Positions 7,698 through 58,204 of a stretch of DNA of 64,000 bases are shown piece by piece. The notes under the pieces are model-generated. The model was not told where the DNA came from, ran no database searches, and saw only the letters and a program-made list of their open reading frames with translations. The translations under genes were made by a program, and so were the position numbers. Source of the DNA: Candidatus Omnitrophota bacterium (GTDB taxonomy: Bacteria > Omnitrophota > Gorgyraeia > Gygaellales > Profunditerraquicolaceae); contig QZKH01000003.1 of assembly GCA_003598025.1 (NCBI GenBank), forward strand, positions 106,048-170,047, in the 5' to 3' direction. How positions within the stretch are numbered: the first letter of the stretch is position 1; each line of letters starts with the position of its first letter.

Positions 7698-7855
7698 TCG
7701 TGAGCTATCAGCTGTCAGCTCTCAGCTCTCAGCAAGCTGTGGTCTGTTGTCCGTCGACTGTGGACTAGCGAGCTATTAGCAGTTACGCAATACTCTATAC
7801 GCTAAACGCTATACGCAATACGCCGTACGCATAACGCAATACGAAAACAAGGAGA
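7698..7855. repeat. mosaic low-complexity repeat element (modules B-G-C), ending in a 23-nt leader shared with 9147-9169
   Basis: cagctgtcagctctcagc; gtggtctgttgtccgtcgactgtggac; tacgcaatac/ctatacgctaaacgctatacgc runs. Confidence 0.8.
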
Positions 7856-9066: not shown

Positions 9067-9169
9067 CGCGTCTCAATACGCCGTACTCAATACGCAATAC
9101 TCTATACGCTAAACGCTATACGCCGTACGCTATACGCCGTACGCACAACGCAATACGAAAACAAGGAGA
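9060..9169. repeat. mosaic repeat (module C) ending in the shared 23-nt leader aacgcaatacgaaaacaaggaga
   Basis: caatacgc/ctatacgc/ccgtacgc heptamer-like runs. The last 23 nt are identical to 7833-7855. Confidence 0.8.
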
Positions 9170-20435: not shown

Positions 20436-22848
20436 CATTTTGATTATAGTAGATAATCTCGCAGCTGGTGGAGCCCAAAGGCAGATTATCGAATATTTAA
20501 AACTTGCTGATAAAAACATTTTTTATTTTAAAGTGGTAAACTTGGATTCAGATGTAACGATTCTGGAAAACGATATAAAACAAATAGGCCTCGAAGTCAT
20601 TAATATCCGTCATAAGGGCTTTTTTAACCTCTCAACTTTATTTAAATTATATAAGATTATAAAGTATGAAAAACCGGCAATCGTGCACACCTTTTTATTT
20701 ACCTCTGACCTATATGGCCGTATTGCAGCTAAATTAGCAGGAATACCTGTAATAATAAGCTCGGTTCGTAACATTGATAAGTGGCAGAAATGGCACCATA
20801 GGCTTGCAGACCGGATTTTGGCGAATGTTACGGATAAAATAACTATTAATGCAGAGTGTATCAGGCCTTATCTTGTGAATACAAAGAAACTCCCTAAAGA
20901 AAAAATTGTTACTATTTATAATGGTATAGATTTGAACAGGTTTGATAATTTAAGAGAGCCTAAGAGCATAAAAGCAGAACTGTGTATTTCGGATAAAGCT
21001 TTAATGGTCGGTATGGTTTCGCGTTTCTCAGAACAAAAGGATTATGATACTCTTCTAAAGGTAGCTCAGGAGATATCAAAAGAGCGGGAAGATGTATATT
21101 TTGTGTGTGTTGGGGATGGTAAATTAAAGCCGATACTCGATTCTCGATTCTCGATACGACCAAAGGGAGTCCTGAGCGAAGCCGAAGGACGCGATACTCG
21201 AAATATAAAGTTCACCGGCCTACGTTCCGACATCCCAGATTTGATTAACGCTATGGATATATGCGTATTATCCAGCCATTATGAGGGTTGTCCTAATGTT
21301 ATTTTGGAATACATGGCTTGCTCAAAACCGGTAATTGCTTCAAATGTTGGCGGATGCGCAGAATTAGTAGCAAATGGTAAGTCCGGTTTTATTGTGCCCC
21401 CAGGAGACATAAATTCCTTAAAAGACAAAATTGTTCTTCTGCTTGATGATAAAGAATTAAGGCTCAGAATGGGCAAAGAAGGCAGGGGGTTAGTTGAGGC
21501 TAAATTCATTTCGCAGAGAATGGTAAAAGAAACAGAAGGCTTATACAAACAATTATTGAACCCTAAAATCGCCTACATCCTTTCCCAATTCCCCGAAACT
21601 CACGAAACTTTCATATTAAGGGAGATAAAGGCACTTAAAGAGAAGGGCGTTGATGTTAAGATTATATCGCTAAAGAAGTGTAGGGACAGAGTTATACATG
21701 ATGAAGCTAAGGAATTTATAAAAGATACGATATATGCTGATGTTAGCGTATTGCGTATTGCGTGTAGCGTATTGAGCAAACCATTAAGATCCTTGGGTGC
21801 GTTGGGGTATGTTTTGAGGAGCTATTTCGGCAAGCCGTGGGAATTTGTTAAAGCGATGTATGTTTTGGCTGAATGCTTGAGTATTGCCCCGATGCTAAAA
21901 AAGATGCGCATAAAGCATATGCATAGCCACTGGGCAACCATGCCGACTACTGCTGCAGTTATCCTCAATAAATTAACGGGCATACCTTTCAGTTTTACTG
22001 CTCATGCCTGGGACCTGTTTATTGATTGCGACGGCTTGGAAGAGAAAATCAATAAGGCAAGGTTTGCTGTTACTTGTACCGGGTATAACAAGAATTTCAT
22101 GGGGTATTTTTGTAATAATGGCCAGGCGGATAAGGTGTATCTTAATTATCATGGATTGGATCTTAGTAAATATGTGGGGGGTCAGGGATTCAAGGAATCG
22201 AGGAATCAAGAGAGTAAATATGTGCGGGATCCACAGTCCGCAATACGCGATACTCAATACGCAATACGCACGACGCAATACGATAAGATATCTATTCTGG
22301 CAATTGGTAGGCTTGTAGAAACTAAAGGATTTGAGTATCTAATTGAGGCGTGTGGGATGTTGAAAGAAAGAGGGATTGATTTTGAGTGCTTTATTGTTGG
22401 ACAAGGACCATTAGAGAAGCGTTTAGCGTATAGCGTAGAGCGTATAGAGTTAAAAGATAAGATTAAATTCTTGGGATTGCAGACGCAGGAGCAGATAAAG
22501 AAGTTGTTTAGCGATGCAAGCGTATTAGTCCAGCCTTCGGTTATGGCCGGTAACGGCGATAGGGATGGCATTCCTAATGTGATTATAGAAGCTATGGCTT
22601 TGGGTGTTCCGGTTATTTCAACTAATTTTTCAGGTATACCAGAAGTAGTCATTGATAAAAAGACAGGTATTTTAGTCCAGGAGAAAGATAGTAATGAACT
22701 TGCCAACGCCATTGAGAACCTGCATAAGGATTGCTATTTGACGGATAAGATAATCAAAAATGCCAGGGAACATGTTGAGAAGAAGTTTAATATAGATACT
22801 AATGTTAGGGAGTTGATAGAGATATTTAGAAGTAATGGAGTATTATGA
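20425..22848 (+). CDS. tandem double GT4 glycosyltransferase carrying four in-frame repeat-module insertions
   Basis: Two Glycos_transf_1-type units, with GT4 motifs at 'EGCPNVILEYMACSKPVIAS' and 'GIPNVIIEAMALGVPVIST'. The inserts are at 21131-21200, 21745-21776, 22231-22287 and 22419-22449. Confidence 0.75.
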   Translation: MRNNILIIVDNLAAGGAQRQIIEYLKLADKNIFYFKVVNLDSDVTILENDIKQIGLEVINIRHKGFFNLSTLFKLYKIIKYEKPAIVHTFLFTSDLYGRIAAKLAGIPVIISSVRNIDKWQKWHHRLADRILANVTDKITINAECIRPYLVNTKKLPKEKIVTIYNGIDLNRFDNLREPKSIKAELCISDKALMVGMVSRFSEQKDYDTLLKVAQEISKEREDVYFVCVGDGKLKPILDSRFSIRPKGVLSEAEGRDTRNIKFTGLRSDIPDLINAMDICVLSSHYEGCPNVILEYMACSKPVIASNVGGCAELVANGKSGFIVPPGDINSLKDKIVLLLDDKELRLRMGKEGRGLVEAKFISQRMVKETEGLYKQLLNPKIAYILSQFPETHETFILREIKALKEKGVDVKIISLKKCRDRVIHDEAKEFIKDTIYADVSVLRIACSVLSKPLRSLGALGYVLRSYFGKPWEFVKAMYVLAECLSIAPMLKKMRIKHMHSHWATMPTTAAVILNKLTGIPFSFTAHAWDLFIDCDGLEEKINKARFAVTCTGYNKNFMGYFCNNGQADKVYLNYHGLDLSKYVGGQGFKESRNQESKYVRDPQSAIRDTQYAIRTTQYDKISILAIGRLVETKGFEYLIEACGMLKERGIDFECFIVGQGPLEKRLAYSVERIELKDKIKFLGLQTQEQIKKLFSDASVLVQPSVMAGNGDRDGIPNVIIEAMALGVPVISTNFSGIPEVVIDKKTGILVQEKDSNELANAIENLHKDCYLTDKIIKNAREHVEKKFNIDTNVRELIEIFRSNGVL
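21131..21200 (+). repeat. in-CDS insertion of repeat module F (ctcgattctcgattctcgatac...)
   Basis: Encodes DSRFSIRPKGVLSEAEGRDTR, which interrupts the conserved GDGxL...FTGxRxD GT4 segment. Compare the uninterrupted paralog at 24100-24190. Confidence 0.7.
21745..21776 (+). repeat. in-CDS insertion of repeat module C (gcgtattgcgtattgcgtgtagcgtattg)
   Basis: encodes SVLRIACSVLS. Confidence 0.6.
22231..22287 (+). repeat. in-CDS insertion of repeat modules D+C (ccacagtcc gcaatacgcgatactcaatacgcaatacgcacgacgcaatacg)
   Basis: encodes PQSAIRDTQYAIRTTQYD. Confidence 0.7.
22419..22449 (+). repeat. in-CDS copy of repeat module C (reverse complement of ctatacgctaaacgctatacgc)
   Basis: gcgtttagcgtatagcgtagagcgtatagag, encoding RLAYSVERIE. 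Confidence 0.6.
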
Positions 22849-23341: not shown

Positions 23342-24526
23342 ATGAAACTAAATGTGCTATATATAATTTGGAGTTTAGGCCTTGGTGGCGCAGAGCGGGT
23401 GGTTATTAACCTGGCTAAAGGGCTTGATAGGGATAAATTTAAGTCGATAGTCTGCTGCCTTAATTCTAAGGGCAAATTTGCAGATGAGCTTGAGAAAGAA
23501 GGTATCAGGGTAATAGAATTAAAAAAGAGATGGAAATTTGACTTTAGTGTCATAAAAAAGCTCATTGAAATAATAAAAGAGAATAAAATAAATATTGTGC
23601 ACACACATCTATGGGGTGCGAATTTCTGGGGAAGATTAGCAGCACAAAAGGCAAGTGTGCCTGTGATAATATCCACAGAGCATAATTCTGATACCTGGAA
23701 GACCCCGCTGCATTTTGTCATAGACAGGTATTTAGCAGCTAAGACAGACAGGATAATCGCGGTATCAAAGAGTGTCAAAGAGTTTTATGTTAAGAATGTG
23801 GGGATCCCTTCTGGGAAAATAGAGGTGATTTATAATGGCATAAGTATATCAGAGCACAGATCACAGATCACAGAGCACAGTAAATCACATTCCGTCCACA
23901 GTCCACAGTCCACAGTCCACAGTCAGGATAACTATATTCGTAAACAATTGGCTATCAGTCCTGATGAGACAGTAATAGCTATGATTGGTAGATTGGTGCC
24001 GCAGAAGGGGCATAAGGATTTCTTGTTAGCCTTAAAGGTCCTTACCGGATGCGGATTTAAGGTCAAAGGTTTAATTGTCGGCAGCGGCCCTCAAGAAATG
24101 TATTTGAAACAGGTGTGTGATAACCTTGCCCTTAATGGAAATGTTATTTTTACCGGTGTAAGGAGCGATATCCCGGAACTGTTTAAGGCAATAGATATGA
24201 TTGCTCTTCCTTCAACAAGGGAAGGTTTTCCTATGATTATATTAGAGGCTATGTCTGCAGGAGTACCTGTGGTTGCTTCAAGCGTTGGAGGGGTCCCTGA
24301 AGTTATAACTAACGGTTTTAACGGGCTTTTAGTTGAGCCTGAGAACCATACTGAGTTAAAAGCTGCTTTCGCTAAGTTAATCCATGATGAGCGGTTATCT
24401 AATAGCCTAATAGATAACGCTCGCGCTACAGTAGCAAAAGAATTTAATTTGAGGAATATGATCGATAGCACACAGGGGCTATATGAAAAGATTTATGAAA
24501 GCAAATTGCCTAAGGCGGATAAATGA
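23342..24526 (+). CDS. family 4 glycosyltransferase with in-frame repeat insertion
   Basis: 'GGAERVVINLAKGL' GT4 N-terminus; 'EGFPMIILEAMSAGVPVVAS' EX7E motif. Confidence 0.8.
   Translation: MKLNVLYIIWSLGLGGAERVVINLAKGLDRDKFKSIVCCLNSKGKFADELEKEGIRVIELKKRWKFDFSVIKKLIEIIKENKINIVHTHLWGANFWGRLAAQKASVPVIISTEHNSDTWKTPLHFVIDRYLAAKTDRIIAVSKSVKEFYVKNVGIPSGKIEVIYNGISISEHRSQITEHSKSHSVHSPQSTVHSQDNYIRKQLAISPDETVIAMIGRLVPQKGHKDFLLALKVLTGCGFKVKGLIVGSGPQEMYLKQVCDNLALNGNVIFTGVRSDIPELFKAIDMIALPSTREGFPMIILEAMSAGVPVVASSVGGVPEVITNGFNGLLVEPENHTELKAAFAKLIHDERLSNSLIDNARATVAKEFNLRNMIDSTQGLYEKIYESKLPKADK
23860..23927 (+). repeat. in-CDS insertion: cacagatcacagatcacagagcacagtaaat...gtccacagtccacagtccacagtccacagtc
   Basis: Encodes SEHRSQITEHSKSHSVHSPQSTVHSQ. 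The unit gtccaca is repeated 4x, and the same composite recurs at 27771-27894. Confidence 0.8.
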
Positions 24527-40828: not shown

Positions 40829-42166
40829 CTAGCGTTTCCTTCTAAATACCGTAGAAAGTATCTTTAAGTCCTGCCTGTATTTTGTTACAGTCCTCCTGGA
40901 TACCTTTATATTGGAATTTTTATGGATAAGCTCAGCAATCTGCTTGTCGCTTAATGGGTGGGATTTATCCTCAATATCAATACAATCTTTAATTAATTTT
41001 TTTGCCTGGTTGCATGAGACTGACTGGCCATTGGTATCAAAGACTTTGCTTGGGAAAAAATCTTTGATTGCAACCATTGACCAGGGTGTTTTTACATATT
41101 TGTTCATTATGGCCCGGCAGACAGTAGTTTCGTGCATATTGATTCTTTGCGCCACTTCTTTAAATGTAAGCGGTTTTAGCAGAGAAAATTCTTCATTTTT
41201 TATAGCCTCGCATTGAATATCTGCTATTACTTCCAAAATCAGCTTTAATGTCGATTTTCTCTTTGAGATAGCCCTGAGTATATCATTAGCGGCTTTAATC
41301 TTTTCGGTTATGAATTTTCTTAAATTAGGGTCAAGGCTTTTATCCTTAAGCATTGCTTTGTATTCTTTGTTTATATCAATTTTAGGCAGGCTTTCATCAT
41401 TTATTATTACCTCTATATCATCACTATGAATTTCGATTCTTGCATCCGGCCTGATCCTTTGATCTTCTTCTGTGGAATAGTTTCTTCCGGGTTTAGGGTC
41501 AAGCCTAAGGATTTTATGCGCAAGTTCTTCAATTAAACCAGGGTCCTGATTCAGGTCTTTTGCGATTACTTTAAAATTCTTTTTTGCTACGTTATCCAGG
41601 TGTTTTTCAACAATTTCTCTTAGTATAGGATTTGTATCGCTATTTTGGTCAAGCTGTATAAGAAGGCACTCTTTCACAGAGCGCGCTCCCACGCCAGCAG
41701 GCTCAAATTCGTGTATTATCTTTAAGATGCGCTCAACAGTCCCGGCAGGGACAGCGCAGGAGGAGGCTATCTCATCAAAGCTGGCTTTTAGGTAGCCGTT
41801 TTCATCAATATTGCCTATGATTTCTTCACCAATCCTGAAGTCACCATCATCAGAAACAAATATCCCTAATTGCCTAAGCAGGCAATCCTGCAAGGAGGTT
41901 TTCTTAGTGACAGATTCAAGCTGGAATTTGACGTCTTCATCAGTAAATTTTTTAAGCGATAGGGGAGAGGCTGGCCGGAAACCCTTGGCTAAAGATCCGC
42001 CAGAGGCGCTATAAGAAGGCTTTTCTTCAAGGGCAGGATTTGATTCCAGCTCCTTTTCAATAAGGCCTTCAATTTCGCTCAGGGGCAGCGCTAAAACGTT
42101 TAAAGAATTGGAAAGCGCTGGTACCAATAATCTGCGTAATTCTGTGCGTTGTTTTGTTTGCATCAT
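40829..42166 (-). CDS. rpoN: RNA polymerase sigma-54 factor
   Basis: C-terminal RpoN box 'RRTVTKYR', HTH, and a Gln/Leu-rich N-terminus. The start was set at the MMQTKQ... ATG pair; the track ORF extends to 42229. Confidence 0.9.
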   Translation of the reverse strand: MMQTKQRTELRRLLVPALSNSLNVLALPLSEIEGLIEKELESNPALEEKPSYSASGGSLAKGFRPASPLSLKKFTDEDVKFQLESVTKKTSLQDCLLRQLGIFVSDDGDFRIGEEIIGNIDENGYLKASFDEIASSCAVPAGTVERILKIIHEFEPAGVGARSVKECLLIQLDQNSDTNPILREIVEKHLDNVAKKNFKVIAKDLNQDPGLIEELAHKILRLDPKPGRNYSTEEDQRIRPDARIEIHSDDIEVIINDESLPKIDINKEYKAMLKDKSLDPNLRKFITEKIKAANDILRAISKRKSTLKLILEVIADIQCEAIKNEEFSLLKPLTFKEVAQRINMHETTVCRAIMNKYVKTPWSMVAIKDFFPSKVFDTNGQSVSCNQAKKLIKDCIDIEDKSHPLSDKQIAELIHKNSNIKVSRRTVTKYRQDLKILSTVFRRKR

Positions 42167-42215
42167 AGCATGATAAGTATAACATATTAATACAAAATAC
42201 TTCAATTTAAATTGC

Positions 42216-42244
42216 CTTGACAAGCACAAAATCGGGCAATATAA
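42216..42244 (+). promoter_or_regulatory. consensus sigma-70 promoter TTGACA-17-TATAAT
   Basis: TTGACA at 42216-42221, a 17-nt spacer, then TATAAT at 42239-42244, about 90 nt upstream of the DUF134 gene. Confidence 0.55.
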
Positions 42245-42332: not shown

Positions 42333-42692
42333 ATGAAACCTAAAGGCAGGCCAAAGAAATACCGGATTATACGACAGGATCCAAGGATATCCCAATTTAG
42401 CCCCAGAGGCAAGCCTGGGAGGCCTGATGAAGTATGCCTTACTATGGATGAATTTGAGGCTATAAGGCTTTCTGACAGGCTTAATAAGCCGCAAAAAGAG
42501 GCTGCCCAGTCAATGAAGGTTTCCCAGCAGACATTCAGCCGTATCTTGAGAAAGGCCCGGATAAAGATAGCAGATAGTATTACTAACGGCAAAATCATAA
42601 AAATACAAGGCGGGTTCTACGCGCTTGTTTCTAATAAGAAAAATACCTCCAGCCAGCTTCAGGAATCCCAGGAAATTAATAAATTAACTTGA
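42333..42692 (+). CDS. DUF134/UPF0251 family putative DNA-binding protein
   Basis: 'KPKGRPKKYRIIRQDPRISQFSPRG...LTMDEFEAIRLSDRLNKPQKEAAQSMKVSQQTFSRIL' matches the DUF134 pattern. Confidence 0.7.
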   Translation: MKPKGRPKKYRIIRQDPRISQFSPRGKPGRPDEVCLTMDEFEAIRLSDRLNKPQKEAAQSMKVSQQTFSRILRKARIKIADSITNGKIIKIQGGFYALVSNKKNTSSQLQESQEINKLT

Positions 42693-42973: not shown

Positions 42974-44122
42974 TTAGGCCATTTTCCTTGTCTTTATTAC
43001 TATTGCCGGGTATATTGAACCTTCGCCATAGCGGTTGTTTATATTATCTAATGTCTCTAAGAGGTCTCCCCTCTTTTTCTGCTCAATAAGTAAAGGGGGG
43101 TATAATTTAATTTTTAGGTTGCTGCAGCTTACCCCAATAGCCCTTATTTTTGGCCTTTTTAGGCCTGTTTTAGCCAGTATTTTCAGGGTATTTGAGTAGA
43201 TCTCGTAACCATCATCAGTCTCCTGGGTAATGGTATTTTGGGCGCAAAAATTGCCCATTTGCGGGCCGTTAAGCCAAAGCTTTATGGTGTTAGAAACCAA
43301 GTTTTGGCTCCTTAGCCTTTCTGATACCATCTCTGAAAGCAGCCTTAACCAGGCCTTGATAAACCCCATGGTTTCTGATGTCCTGGGAAATGTGTAAGAA
43401 TGGCTTATTGATTTGGGTTTTTCTTCTTCGTTTGTTGACTCAAGGTGTTCGGTTGCATGTAAAGATGCATATAAATTCAGGCCGTATTTACCCAGCGTTT
43501 CTTTAAGGAATCTGGCTGTTTTTTGGTGCAGGTCAAGGCATGTCTTTATGCCCAAGGTTGTAAAAAGAAGCTCTGTTTTTGGGCCTACTCCTGCGATTTT
43601 AGCAACCGGAGTCTTACCTAATACTTCTCTTAAGTTTGTTTCTGTAAGCAGGCATATTCCGTTTGGTTTGTTTATTTTAGAAGCTAGTTTTGCTAGTAAG
43701 GAATTCTTCGCTATGCCTATTGAAGCGGTTATGTTAAAGTTTGCATATATTCTTGCCTGAATATCTTTTGCCAGTTCAAGGGGCGCATTTTCCTGGCCTA
43801 TATCTAAACGGAATTCATCAATTGAAGCGTAAGCAGCCTCAAGGCTGTAGTCTTTAAGCATCCCGTAGATCTGTTGCGAGGTCCAGATATATTTACCCTG
43901 ATCAGCTGCCACAAATTCTGCTTTTGGGCATATCTGAAATGCATCTTTGGTAGGCATTCCGGAGTGTATGCCAAGGGCTTTGGCTTCATAGCTTGCAGCG
44001 CAGACTACGGTATATAATTTATTGCCTCTTGAGCCTACTATTAGCGGTTTGCCTTTTAGCCTTGGGTTGATTGCTTGCTCAATAGATGCAAAAAACGCAT
44101 CCATATCGATGTGGAGAATCAT
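42974..44122 (-). CDS. dinB: DNA polymerase IV (Y-family)
   Basis: 'MILHIDMDAFFASIEQ...KPLIVGS' canonical DinB N-terminus; 'SIDEFRLD' catalytic region. Confidence 0.9.
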   Translation of the reverse strand: MILHIDMDAFFASIEQAINPRLKGKPLIVGSRGNKLYTVVCAASYEAKALGIHSGMPTKDAFQICPKAEFVAADQGKYIWTSQQIYGMLKDYSLEAAYASIDEFRLDIGQENAPLELAKDIQARIYANFNITASIGIAKNSLLAKLASKINKPNGICLLTETNLREVLGKTPVAKIAGVGPKTELLFTTLGIKTCLDLHQKTARFLKETLGKYGLNLYASLHATEHLESTNEEEKPKSISHSYTFPRTSETMGFIKAWLRLLSEMVSERLRSQNLVSNTIKLWLNGPQMGNFCAQNTITQETDDGYEIYSNTLKILAKTGLKRPKIRAIGVSCSNLKIKLYPPLLIEQKKRGDLLETLDNINNRYGEGSIYPAIVIKTRKMA

Positions 44123-44215
44123 GGATTAGTTCATTGTTGATAGTTCATTGTTCATAGTGCATTGTTAATGGGTATGGAGTTTTCTATGAACCAAGAACCA
44201 TGAACTATGAACAGG
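44123..44215. repeat. module-A imperfect palindrome (gttcat... / ...atgaac arms)
   Basis: tagttcattgttgatagttcattgttcatag ... ctatgaaccaagaaccatgaactatgaac. Confidence 0.7.
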
Positions 44216-44219
44216 CCTA

Positions 44220-44540
44220 TTATTCTATTACTTTTTCTAACCTCCATCCCAACGTTGTATTATTGAAAGAGATTTGATATAGGTTAGCTTGTGTGCTTAT
44301 GGAGAATTTTATTATTATCTCTTTGCCTTGGCGTTCCTGCCAGTTATAGGTTATTTTCTTAATTTTATAACTTTTATTTTTCCAAATAAAAATCCGTGGT
44401 ATCAGCTTTGCGCCTTTAAACCAGGCAAGGACCTGTATTTTTTCGTTTAGAATATCCGGTTCTTCCTGGTGTTCTGCTGATGTTTCGGGAATATGCCTGT
44501 CCCACCGGGCTTTTGGATTAAAGCTTTGTTGTAGAGCCAT
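44220..44540 (-). CDS. hypothetical protein between lexA and dinB
   Basis: 106-aa ORF co-oriented with and tightly spaced between the SOS genes. No family recognised. Confidence 0.45.
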   Translation of the reverse strand: MALQQSFNPKARWDRHIPETSAEHQEEPDILNEKIQVLAWFKGAKLIPRIFIWKNKSYKIKKITYNWQERQGKEIIIKFSISTQANLYQISFNNTTLGWRLEKVIE

Positions 44541-44555
44541 ATTAGTATTGTGTAT

Positions 44556-44700
44556 CTAGTATATATTAGTTCATGGTTCATAGTTCATGGAGATAGATAA
44601 AGTATCTAGCCACAAGGTCACAAGGTCACAAATATTGCGTTATGCGTATTGCGTACGGCGTATCGAGAATCTAGTATTAAGAATCTAGGATCAAGGATTG
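44556..44700. repeat. mosaic repeat element, reverse orientation (modules A-I-E-C-F)
   Basis: ttagttcatggttcatagttcatgg; agatagataaagtatctag; ccacaaggtcacaaggtcacaa; attgcgttatgcgtattgcgtacggcgta; tcgagaatctagtattaagaatctagg. Confidence 0.85.
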
Positions 44701-44711
44701 AATATCTTTGT

Positions 44712-45323
44712 TCACCGATATTTCCTTAGTAAGCTGATTAGCTTGCCAATTACGCTGAAATTCTTGCGGATTGGCTGATAGTTTACATTAGCCGGCTCAA
44801 GATAAATATGGCTGCCTGTATTCTTGAATATCTTTAGTGTTACCTCATTATTATCAAGTAATGCTGCGATTATATCATTGTTATGCGCAAGCGGTTGTTT
44901 TTTGATGATAGCAATGTCATCTTCAAGTATGCCGGCATCAACCATGCTGTCGCCTTTGACTTTTAAGGCAAACACATCATTATAACTAAGCCTTCCTAAG
45001 TATAAGTCATAAGGGTCAACGTATCCCTGGATATCTTCATAAGCTAAGCTGGGGCTTCCTGCGGCAATCGTGCCTATAATCGGTATCTTATTAATGTTGC
45101 TTTTTGCCAGGTCTATATGGCGGGATTTGTAACTGGCGCGTTTTAAATAGCCTTTATTTTGCAATGCGTTCAAATAGTCACGTACTGTACCGGTTGAGCT
45201 AAACCCGAATTCAGCCGCGATCTCCCTTATTGTCGGAGGAATATTTTGTTCCTCTATCCTGTTTTTTATAAACTCCAGCACTTTCTGTTGTTTTGTAGTT
45301 AAGTCATTCGTTAGCATTGTCAA
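44712..45323 (-). CDS. lexA: LexA repressor (S24 peptidase)
   Basis: N-terminal winged HTH 'LTTKQQKVLEFI...PTIREIAAEFGFSSTGTV', cleavage-site-like AG, Ser/Lys dyad region 'VKGDSMVDAGI...K'. Confidence 0.9.
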   Translation of the reverse strand: MTMLTNDLTTKQQKVLEFIKNRIEEQNIPPTIREIAAEFGFSSTGTVRDYLNALQNKGYLKRASYKSRHIDLAKSNINKIPIIGTIAAGSPSLAYEDIQGYVDPYDLYLGRLSYNDVFALKVKGDSMVDAGILEDDIAIIKKQPLAHNNDIIAALLDNNEVTLKIFKNTGSHIYLEPANVNYQPIRKNFSVIGKLISLLRKYR

Positions 45324-45329
45324 CCTCCT

Positions 45330-45420
45330 TAATCAGCTATTAGCTTTCAGTCGTCAGCTGTCAGCTATGATCTATCAACCCTGTCTACCGGCAGGCAGCC
45401 ATGAACTACAAACCAATCTA
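45330..45420. repeat. mosaic repeat (modules B, J, A)
   Basis: cagctattagctttcagtcgtcagctgtcagct; ctgtctaccggcaggcag; ccatgaactacaaacc. Confidence 0.7.
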
Positions 45421-45445
45421 TACCACACATTTGTGTGGATGTCAA
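45417..45445 (-). promoter_or_regulatory. lexA promoter (TTGACA-17-TATAGA, read on the minus strand) with a 16-bp palindromic candidate LexA operator in the spacer
   Basis: The minus strand reads TTGACA tccacacaaatgtgtgg TATAGA. The palindrome CCACACAtt/aaTGTGTGG lies at 45423-45438, about 95 nt upstream of the lexA ATG. Confidence 0.5.
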
Positions 45446-45454
45446 GCCTTTTAG

Positions 45455-45527
45455 GTCCGTTTCTCCCGCTGACCATAGAGTTGCCCCCGCTGGGGGCACT
45501 TCTGTGATGAGTGGGAGAAACGGACCT
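45455..45527. other. 73-nt structured element: 14-bp outer inverted repeat enclosing a GC hairpin
   Basis: ggtccgtttctccc ... gcccccgctgggggc ... gggagaaacggacc. Lies between the methyltransferase stop and the lexA promoter. Confidence 0.35.
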
Positions 45528-45537
45528 CCCCTGCTGA

Positions 45538-46218
45538 TTAATAACAGTGGGTGCAGATGAAGATAAATTGAAAGGCGGTTAGCTTGGTTAGGATATTTAG
45601 CCTGTGGCCAAGGCCTGTGGGGATAATTTTAATTATTTTACATCCGGATTGCTCTATCATCCGTATTGCGGTTTTCATGGTAAAGAACCTAAGGTGCTGG
45701 CTGTGCATTATACCATTATCGTAGTCAAAATTTCCGAATAAATGCCTTAATCTGTATTCTATTCTGGCTATGTTCGGTATAGAAATTATTATTTTGCCTT
45801 TATTTTTAAGGTTCTCTTTGATAAATTTATTCAGCACCCTGGAGGGCTCGGGTAAGTGCTCTAGTATATCCACAAATAGTATCTGATCGTATTTGAAGCC
45901 AGGTAATGAAAAAGTATTGCTCGATAGGTCTATTCTATAGGTATTTCTGTAGCCGTTCTCTTTAGCTTTGCTAAGCAGACATTCTTCTATATCTATTCCG
46001 TCTACGACACAGTTTTTGTTTTTGATAAGCCATTTACCTATATAACCGGAATTACACCCTACATCAAGTACGGCTGTATCTGTGGGCATAAGCCCAAGAA
46101 TGATGCTATGCGGGCTGTGAGGATCGGTGTTAAAAGTATGAGTCTCAATGTTTTTTATCAAAATATCCTTATTGTAAGCCCATGAACCATGAACCATGAA
46201 CCATGAACCATGAACCAT
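45538..46218 (-). CDS. class I SAM-dependent methyltransferase; N-terminus encoded by module-A repeats
   Basis: 'VLDVGCNSGYIGKWL' motif I and 'ILFVDILEH' motif II-like. The N-terminus 'MVHGSWFMVHGSW' is translated from (catgaacc)n. The true start is uncertain. Confidence 0.7.
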   Translation of the reverse strand: MVHGSWFMVHGSWAYNKDILIKNIETHTFNTDPHSPHSIILGLMPTDTAVLDVGCNSGYIGKWLIKNKNCVVDGIDIEECLLSKAKENGYRNTYRIDLSSNTFSLPGFKYDQILFVDILEHLPEPSRVLNKFIKENLKNKGKIIISIPNIARIEYRLRHLFGNFDYDNGIMHSQHLRFFTMKTAIRMIEQSGCKIIKIIPTGLGHRLNILTKLTAFQFIFICTHCY

Positions 46219-46225
46219 GAACCAT
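46176..46225. repeat. tandem octamer repeat (catgaacc)x6
   Basis: ccatgaaccatgaaccatgaaccatgaaccatgaaccatgaac. Confidence 0.9.
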
Positions 46226-46243
46226 GAACAAACCTACTCTTAC

Positions 46244-47288: not shown

Positions 47289-47499
47289 TATTATCAGCTT
47301 TCAGTCATCAGCGTTCAGCAAGCTGTGGTCTGTGGACCGTGGTCTGTAAACTAATAGATGCTCGATTCTAGATACTAGATTCTCGATACGCCGTACGCAA
47401 TACGCATAACGCAATATTTGTGTCTTTGTGACTTTGTGTCTTTGTGACCAGATACTTTATCTATTTCTATGAACTATGAACCATCAGCTATGAACTAAC
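47289..47499. repeat. most complete mosaic repeat element (module order B-G-F-C-H-I-A)
   Basis: cagctttcagtcatcagcgttcagc | gtggtctgtggaccgtggtctgt | gctcgattctagatactagattctcgatac | gccgtacgcaatacgcataacgcaata | ttgtgtctttgtgactttgtgtctttgtgac | cagatactttatctatttc | tatgaactatgaaccatcagctatgaac. Confidence 0.9.
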
Positions 47500-58004: not shown

Positions 58005-58204
58005 GAATATTAATAAAGACTAAAATTAATTCATAGTTCAGGGTTCATTGTTCATGGGTTTTGCATACCTATCAACCACGAACCATGAAACTAGTTTTTT
58101 TGTGATTTTGCCTGCCTACCGGTAGGCAGGTGTCGTGTGTCTTTGTGACTAGATACTTTATCTATCTCTATGAACCATTAACTATGAACCATGAACTAAT
58201 ATTA
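58005..58204. repeat. mosaic repeat element (A-palindrome, J, H, I, A)
   Basis: ttcatagttcagggttcattgttcatgg...cgaaccatgaaac; cctgcctaccggtaggcagg (perfect 20-bp palindrome); gtgtctttgtgac; tagatactttatctatctc; tatgaaccattaactatgaaccatgaac. Confidence 0.85.

Follow-up and report, generated by a model that had tools for sequence, protein, structure and literature searches.

What occupies the spacer of the lexA promoter in this Omnitrophota bacterium, and is it the operator of LexA itself? The window, by which we mean the whole 64-kb stretch of DNA that was analyzed (38.5% GC), carries lexA, a small ORF and a dinB-like gene on its minus strand, preceded by a compact promoter that reads directly, on the minus strand from 45445 to 45417, as TTGACA-t-CCACACAaaTGTGTGG-TATAGA. 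The promoter elements and genes are as follows.

45440..45445, minus strand: -35 hexamer TTGACA, 6/6 match to consensus
45439, minus strand: spacer base t, between the -35 and the dyad
45423..45438, read on the minus strand: candidate LexA operator CCACACAAATGTGTGG, a 7+2+7 dyad
45417..45422, minus strand: -10 hexamer TATAGA, 4/6 match to consensus; its TA is invariant directly after the box in orthologues
44712-45317, minus strand: lexA, 201 aa, with Pfam domains Peptidase_S24 (PF00717) and LexA_DNA_bind (PF01726)
44220-44540, minus strand: 106-aa DUF6504 protein, the DUF6504 match being weak for this copy
42974-44122, minus strand: dinB-like Y-family polymerase, 382 aa, with IMS and IMS_C domains

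The initial annotation had described a sigma-70-type promoter with a 17-nt spacer and an extended TG, and this layout is seen on the minus strand, albeit with a weak -10. The 17-nt spacer between the -35 and the -10 is filled by the dyad, and the TGn of the extended -10 is the final TGG of the dyad (45425-45423). Because TATAGA has no T at position 6, a consensus promoter scan misses the window lexA promoter and did not list it. Orthologous promoters have TATTAT, TAAAGT, TAGTAT, TAATAT, TATAGT or TATAAT at the same place. The inverted repeat proposed for the spacer is present, with arms at 45423-45429 and 45432-45438 that are 7 nt each, 100% complementary and 2 nt apart, but it is not the perfect 16-bp palindrome that had been claimed: the AA at its center is not self-complementary, which makes it a 7+2+7 dyad with symmetry at 14/16 positions. 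It is best parsed as C-CACAC-N4-GTGTG-G, and its span of 16 bp falls in the 14-20 bp range suited to a LexA dimer. The window has a single exact copy of the box. A 7-bp inverted repeat alone is common there (40 have perfect 7-bp arms separated by 0-4 nt, the loop being 2 nt in 12), and the case for the dyad therefore rests on comparison with other loci.

For this comparison, lexA loci were drawn from collections of genomes and metagenomes, together with contigs encoding close homologues. The scan of genome contigs with a single LexA protein yielded 13 loci, 6 of them close, and the metagenome scan with a LexA alignment gave mostly distant LexAs among the matches listed. Among LexAs sharing 48-100% identity with the window LexA, 17/17 readable lexA promoters have the box, two of them with a single mismatch; one of the 17 promoters precedes an NYN-domain ORF upstream of lexA. 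The orthologous unit consists of TTGACA (so placed in nearly all), 1-2 nt, CCACACAAATGTGTGG and then TA. Across 19 non-identical sites, conservation is 1.5-2 bits at all 16 positions of the box, compared with 0.1-0.5 in the flanks. Exact copies of CCACAC-N4-GTGTGG number 17 in 338,098 bp of non-redundant Omnitrophota-type DNA, where 0.008 would be expected and where 200 shuffles gave a mean of 0.005. All 17 are situated in promoter spacers, 14 before lexA, one before NYN-lexA and two before dinB, and none was found in the 338,098 bp outside these promoters. A search of viral contigs for the box plus TA returned 0 matches. Two box-like sites, one with 1 mismatch inside the dinB coding sequence of L099 and another at 2523 within an ORF of L052, were taken as chance.

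The position of the start codon is also characteristic. The ATG is found 12-13 nt past the box, and 6-7 nt past the -10, in 12/19 Omnitrophota-type sites (L002, L004, L005, L006, L014, L015, L016, L017, L024, L096, L097 for dinB, and L101). This spacing suggests leaderless transcripts, and the lexA and dinB mRNAs of the short-leader lineages are probably leaderless. Leaders of 28-130 nt are found in the window, L001, L094, L097 (for lexA), L099 and L102. The AAAT center of the box is asymmetric and keeps one orientation relative to transcription at all sites.

In the light of these comparisons, the dyad at 45423-45438 is very probably the Omnitrophota LexA operator, through which LexA would repress lexA, the DUF6504 (ImuB-C-like) gene and dinB. 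The annotation had suggested both a lineage-specific LexA operator and a geometry typical of auto-repressed lexA genes. Both suggestions held: the box is located within the -35/-10 spacer in the window as in every one of the orthologous lexA promoters, as would be expected of autorepression, and the lineage-specific operator is further favored by the two dinB promoters, by the lack of any box where lexA is missing, and by co-variation of the box with the LexA recognition helix. Counting against a LexA operator are the unlinked dinB genes of L099 and L104, which have no box, the weak -10 in the window, and the one-way AAAT center. The last of these is not required by a symmetric dimer, and may instead be due to shared descent of the promoter module.

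Could the conserved 30-bp unit simply be an inherited strong-promoter module, with a spacer kept by geometry or descent and with no repressor? The single orientation of the AAAT center and the extended -10 TG supplied by the box would both suit such a module, and the lexA promoter could have been copied to give the two separate dinB promoters. Promoter spacers are normally free of sequence constraint, yet here all 16 positions of the box are near 2 bits while the -10 is allowed to vary. Moreover, the dyad symmetry survives changes of sequence, being retained in the ACACAC...GTGTGT arms of L050 and around the other centers of L016, L019 and L063. The unit is found at no promoter but those of lexA and dinB in 338 kb, and it is gone where lexA is absent. 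A promoter module without a repressor is in our view a very unlikely explanation of the dyad.

If the dyad is a LexA operator, the protein should be a competent repressor, and its DNA-binding domain should differ in step with the box. The window LexA, which has the same sequence as the protein P0001 of a Candidatus Omnitrophota MAG, scores 175.2 bits against the TIGR00498 equivalog (cutoff 110.95) and has both the N-terminal LexA wHTH and the C-terminal S24 peptidase. Its Ala86-Gly87, Ser124 and Lys162 align with A84-G85, S119 and K156 of the E. coli protein, and the cleavage site and Ser/Lys dyad are near-invariant in 95 sequences. Judged by these residues and domains, the window LexA is a canonical, self-cleaving repressor.

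Among the matches listed, which comprise 93 lexA loci, the promoter dyad classes track the LexA clade. CACAC-N4-GTGTG is associated with close relatives of the window LexA, and the same box class precedes more distant lexA genes in a Verrucomicrobiia MAG (L019) and in a Planctomycetota/Desulfobacterales MAG with lexA-dinB. Most lexA genes whose products share 32-40% identity with the window LexA have CGAAC-N4-GTTCG upstream. The recognition helix of the CACAC class is S-T-G-T/S-V/A-R-D-Y/H-L (STGTVRDY in the window LexA), and that of the CGAAC class is S-S/T-S-T-V-H-x-H-L (SSSTVHxH), as in B. subtilis. Since the type of box follows the recognition helix of LexA, the Omnitrophota box is best regarded as derived from the Gram-positive/cyanobacterial 5-N4-5 box, with two positions changed per half-site.

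Further 5-N4-5 variants were encountered among the collected loci. CTAAC-N4-GTTAG occurs with helix SVFDHL in L018 and L053, CAAAC-N4-GTTTG in L036, L055, L069, L084 and L091, and CACACATTAGTTTG or CAAACGGCTGTTTG with helix SSCTVQRHL in the Armatimonadota-type pair L052 and L093. Together the variants resemble a graded series from CGAAC to CACAC. An unassigned metagenome contig, L050 (5779-11447), has the variant box ACACACATTTGTGTGT followed by lexA, DUF72, a Y-family polymerase and dnaE2, a different mutagenesis cassette with the same class of box.

How does the Omnitrophota box compare with the LexA boxes that have been catalogued? The closest is the Gram-positive (Cheo) box CGAAC-N4-GTTCG, described alongside the cyanobacterial RGTAC-N3-DGTWCB (PMC3091678). 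The Gram-positive and Omnitrophota boxes have in common a 14-bp 5-N4-5 core with an unchanged outer C/G and inner AC-N4-GT, an overlap with promoters of lexA and of genes for translesion polymerases, and a canonical wHTH-S24 LexA. They differ at half-site positions 2 and 3 (CGAAC to CACAC), in one further conserved base pair on each side of the Omnitrophota box (CCACAC...GTGTGG), and in the recognition helix, STGTVRDY as opposed to SSSTVHxH. The best match of the box to the consensus arms GAAC/GTTC has 4/10 mismatches (L001, with the same core), and no CTGT-N8-ACAG site is present at the window lexA promoter. The half-site thus does stand outside the two classic motifs, as had been annotated, but it is not unrelated to GAAC-N4-GTTC, because C..AC-N4-GT..G is preserved.

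The E. coli SOS box, CTGT-N8-ACAG (PMC8565304), likewise forms a 16-bp dyad in the lexA promoter, and E. coli shares with the proposed Omnitrophota system the logic of autoregulation and RecA-triggered self-cleavage; the half-site and the pattern of conserved positions are different. Other LexA motifs include TTAC-N3-GTAA, GGTT-N10-AACC and GTTC-N7-GTTC (PMC8565304), and the motifs of Bacteroidetes and Balneolaeota (PMC8565304, PMC7739468) all differ from the Omnitrophota box. The 16-mer, the box motif, LexA in Omnitrophica/Omnitrophota and DUF6504 were also sought by name in the literature searched, with nothing relevant found. Two further lineages are near or within the PVC/FCB groups and have 14-bp dyads with an N4 center, like the Omnitrophota box: Verrucomicrobia, where the LexA box is reportedly TGTTC-N4-GAACA, and Fibrobacter, where it is said to be TGCNC-N4-GTGCA. 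The Fibrobacter box shares C-N4-G with that of Omnitrophota, and CAC...GTG when N is A, although its arms otherwise differ. The Verrucomicrobia arms differ in sequence too, and their half-sites are inverted; the Verrucomicrobiia MAG L019 has the CCACAC type instead. The comparison with catalogued classes that the annotation had called for therefore came out in favor of a distinct sequence, all described motifs differing from CCACAC-N4-GTGTGG, and the box is a probable LexA-box variant without a match in the literature searched.

Sites away from lexA provide a further view of the box. In L097, dinB is separated from lexA and its small ORF by an inserted type II secretion cluster; lexA retains its own box, and dinB has the promoter TTGACAT-CCACACAAATGTGTGG-TATATC 12 nt before its ATG. 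In L102, dinB is split from lexA by a 41-aa ORF and a terminator-like hairpin, and its box is exact and followed by TATAAT. The unlinked dinB genes of L099 and L104 have no box, so that it is absent in 2/4 unlinked cases. Two loci, L105 and L106, have DUF6504-dinB (and DUF134) with neither lexA at the locus nor a box, which suggests that lexA has been lost or relocated in some Omnitrophota lineages. A tblastn search of the collected DNA found recA only in loci that are not of the CACAC class. The predicted regulon supported here consists of lexA, its operon partners and dinB only.

The same loci allow another alternative to be weighed, in which the dyad is the operator of a different nearby regulator, such as the HTH-like DUF134 protein or the DUF6504 protein. 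The DUF134 gene adjoins dinB in the window and in L096, L097, L099, L101, L102 and L104-L106, and the DUF6504 gene is always in the operon. However, L104, L105 and L106 have both DUF134 and DUF6504 genes and no box, while L019, L050 and L063 have a box with neither of these genes nearby, leaving lexA as the sole gene common to all box-bearing loci. The class of box follows the recognition helix of LexA, and the predicted structure of the DUF6504 protein is all-beta with no recognizable DNA-binding fold. Control by either of these proteins instead of LexA is very unlikely.

As a side observation, L105 (9578-11146) and L106 (9674-11155) preserve the usual neighborhood, with DUF2062 upstream and DUF134 downstream, and an unrelated ORF of 146-169 aa encoding a membrane or secreted protein replaces lexA. 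In the window the DUF134 gene (42333-42692, plus strand) is convergent to dinB, and rpoN, which is often found beyond it, is at 40829-42229 on the minus strand. The DUF134 synteny holds in the loci named above irrespective of lexA or the box.

Two conspicuous elements flank the promoter on either side, and the following features are concerned.

45318..45416, minus strand: lexA leader, ~95 nt, a lineage-specific insertion outside the operator
45333-45366, minus strand: five tandem heptads in the lexA leader, found by repeat detection
45324-45330, minus strand: strong Shine-Dalgarno AAGGAGG of lexA, read from the sequence
45453..45527, minus strand: very stable hairpin, located after the methyltransferase stop codon and before the lexA -35

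Is one of these the true control element of lexA, either the leader tandem repeat (45333-45377) or the hairpin, with the palindrome being incidental? Both are prominent and adjacent to the promoter, but neither is conserved, and most orthologues have no leader. The heptads were rejected as a rival operator because they are not conserved in orthologues and belong to a genome-wide intergenic feature, period-7 arrays, of which there are 38 in the 64 kb. The hairpin is an imperfect inverted repeat with 36-nt arms that abuts the lexA -35; its RNA fold has an energy of -54.6 kcal/mol (z = -8.8) and no U-tract. It matches no Rfam family and has no second copy in the window, and, being unique there, it was rejected as a dispersed element. 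In orthologous loci an ordinary hairpin with a T-run, the terminator of the upstream gene, occupies this position, and the window hairpin is probably a transcriptional insulator or a terminator without a U-tract. Control of lexA by the leader repeat or hairpin is accordingly a highly improbable explanation. Least probable of all, to the point of being negligible, is that the palindrome is a functionless chance inverted repeat: frequent as such repeats are in the window, chance does not account for 17 exact orthologous and paralogous copies at the same promoter position where 0.008 are expected.

What, then, would the LexA operator control? The genes behind it had been annotated as a minimal SOS mutagenesis cassette, co-oriented and closely spaced. 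They are co-oriented, all being on the minus strand, but with intergenic gaps of 171 nt (lexA to the 106-aa ORF) and 97 nt (106-aa ORF to dinB) they are not especially tight; neither gap contains a box or a terminator-like site on the minus strand. That they form a small SOS mutagenesis cassette agrees with the gene order of a published operon, lexA-imuB-C-polY ('GeoPolY-like'), which is found in delta-proteobacteria (Geobacter sulfurreducens), Deferribacteres and Planctomycetes (Timinskas and Venclovas 2019, PMC6511836). The Geobacter sulfurreducens operon is described as autoregulated, damage-inducible and expressed as one transcript (Jara et al. 2003 as cited in PMC6511836). Like it, the window cassette consists of lexA, a gene for a small beta-rich protein and a gene for a Y-family polymerase on one strand. 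The differences are that Omnitrophota are not among the hosts in PMC6511836, that the Geobacter LexA box is GGTT-N10-AACC (PMC8565304) and not CCACAC-N4-GTGTGG, and that the small protein of Omnitrophota has an extra disordered N-terminal tail with FNPKARWDR. Since the window operon matches the published cassette, it is a cassette of a known kind, for which Omnitrophota is a new host.

The small protein belongs to a family of ~280 proteins, of which the members with a named source are Omnitrophota hypothetical proteins, and DUF6504 is matched by 33/34 members. In every Omnitrophota locus with dinB its gene is directly 3' of lexA, and it also follows lexA in L007 (a Geobacteraceae MAG), L018, L032, L053 and L091. 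The AlphaFold model of the 106-aa protein has a seven-strand all-beta core (residues 33-105, pLDDT 82-91), for which no solved structural relative and no recognizable DNA-binding fold were found. The DUF6504 membership, the all-beta model and the lack of a solved relative agree with the published description of ImuB-C (PMC6511836), and by this analogy the protein is probably a standalone ImuB-C-like accessory subunit. The best NCBIfam matches of the polymerase are Pol IV models, below the equivalog cutoffs. Its translation contains the HIDMDAFFAS and SIDEF motifs, and the dinB-like translesion polymerase is apparently catalytically active.

The disordered N-terminal tail of the Omnitrophota DUF6504 proteins contains an invariant FNPKARWDR (window residues 7-15), with the general form F-x-P-x-x-R-W-D-R, that is absent from the shorter lexA-adjacent homologues in L007, L018, L032 and L053. 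This tail may be a short linear docking motif.

How might the operator work? A LexA dimer bound to the dyad would fill the spacer between TTGACA and the -10 and cover the TG of the extended -10, keeping RNA polymerase off the promoter, and lexA, the DUF6504 gene and dinB, which are presumably co-transcribed in this organism, would be repressed together. After DNA damage, RecA on single-stranded DNA would trigger self-cleavage of LexA between Ala86 and Gly87 through Ser124 and Lys162. Cleavage of LexA would free the promoter and the translesion polymerase would be made. We infer LexA binding, repression by occlusion and RecA-dependent induction from the sequences compared here.

A broader possibility, which we put forward tentatively as one that may well prove wrong, is that SOS in Omnitrophota and scattered PVC-related bacteria is a self-contained module made up of a compact promoter-operator unit, lexA, an ImuB-C-like subunit and a translesion polymerase. 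No other gene, recA included, would then be under LexA control, and CCACAC-N4-GTGTGG/STGTVRDY would represent an additional LexA class. In such a module the promoter-operator unit may often give a leaderless mRNA, and its operator may double as the extended -10. Such a restricted regulon is reminiscent of Geobacter, in which LexA is reported not to bind the recA promoter. LexA is unusual among bacterial regulators in the many changes that its binding motif has undergone. New classes have each served to trace the co-evolution of repressor, operator and regulon, and 17 specificity classes had been counted by 2021 (PMC8565304). If the Omnitrophota class is real, CGAAC/SSSTVHxH and CACAC/STGTVRDY would form a clean natural pair for the LexA recognition code, and the related helix and box variants would lend themselves to tests in which a few residues are exchanged. 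No SOS data were found in the literature searched for Omnitrophota, a phylum that is large and uncultivated; once its box is known, a simple scan would be enough to predict the SOS regulon in any of its MAGs. The lexA-imuB-C-polY mutagenesis cassette would also have a wider known range. These points should be useful to SOS specialists and for annotation of Omnitrophota genomes; the regulatory logic is that of textbook SOS autoregulation and not a new system.

The period-7 arrays deserve a separate description. They comprise 4-12 copies of many different units, the commonest being GTTCATG/CCATGAA, CAATACG and AGCTGTC, and 25/38 are outside long ORFs, though only ~16% of the window is outside. 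Examples are found at 385-457, 7703-7848, 9074-9157, 22239-22282, 23850-23924, 44127-44212, 44569-44695, 45333-45366 (the lexA leader), 46180-46229, 47323-47497 and 58030-58198. Arrays of opposite sense flank each other and could pair. L097 and L099 contain fewer such arrays, and in other Omnitrophota loci they are rare; we take them to be similar to STRR, the heptameric repeats of heterocystous cyanobacteria. At 46180-46229, an array of CCATGAA in seven perfect copies runs across the start predicted for the methyltransferase ORF (45538-46218, minus strand), giving it the odd N-terminus MVHGSWFMVHGSW. The Pfam domains of the methyltransferase begin at about residue 37, and its true start is probably further downstream.
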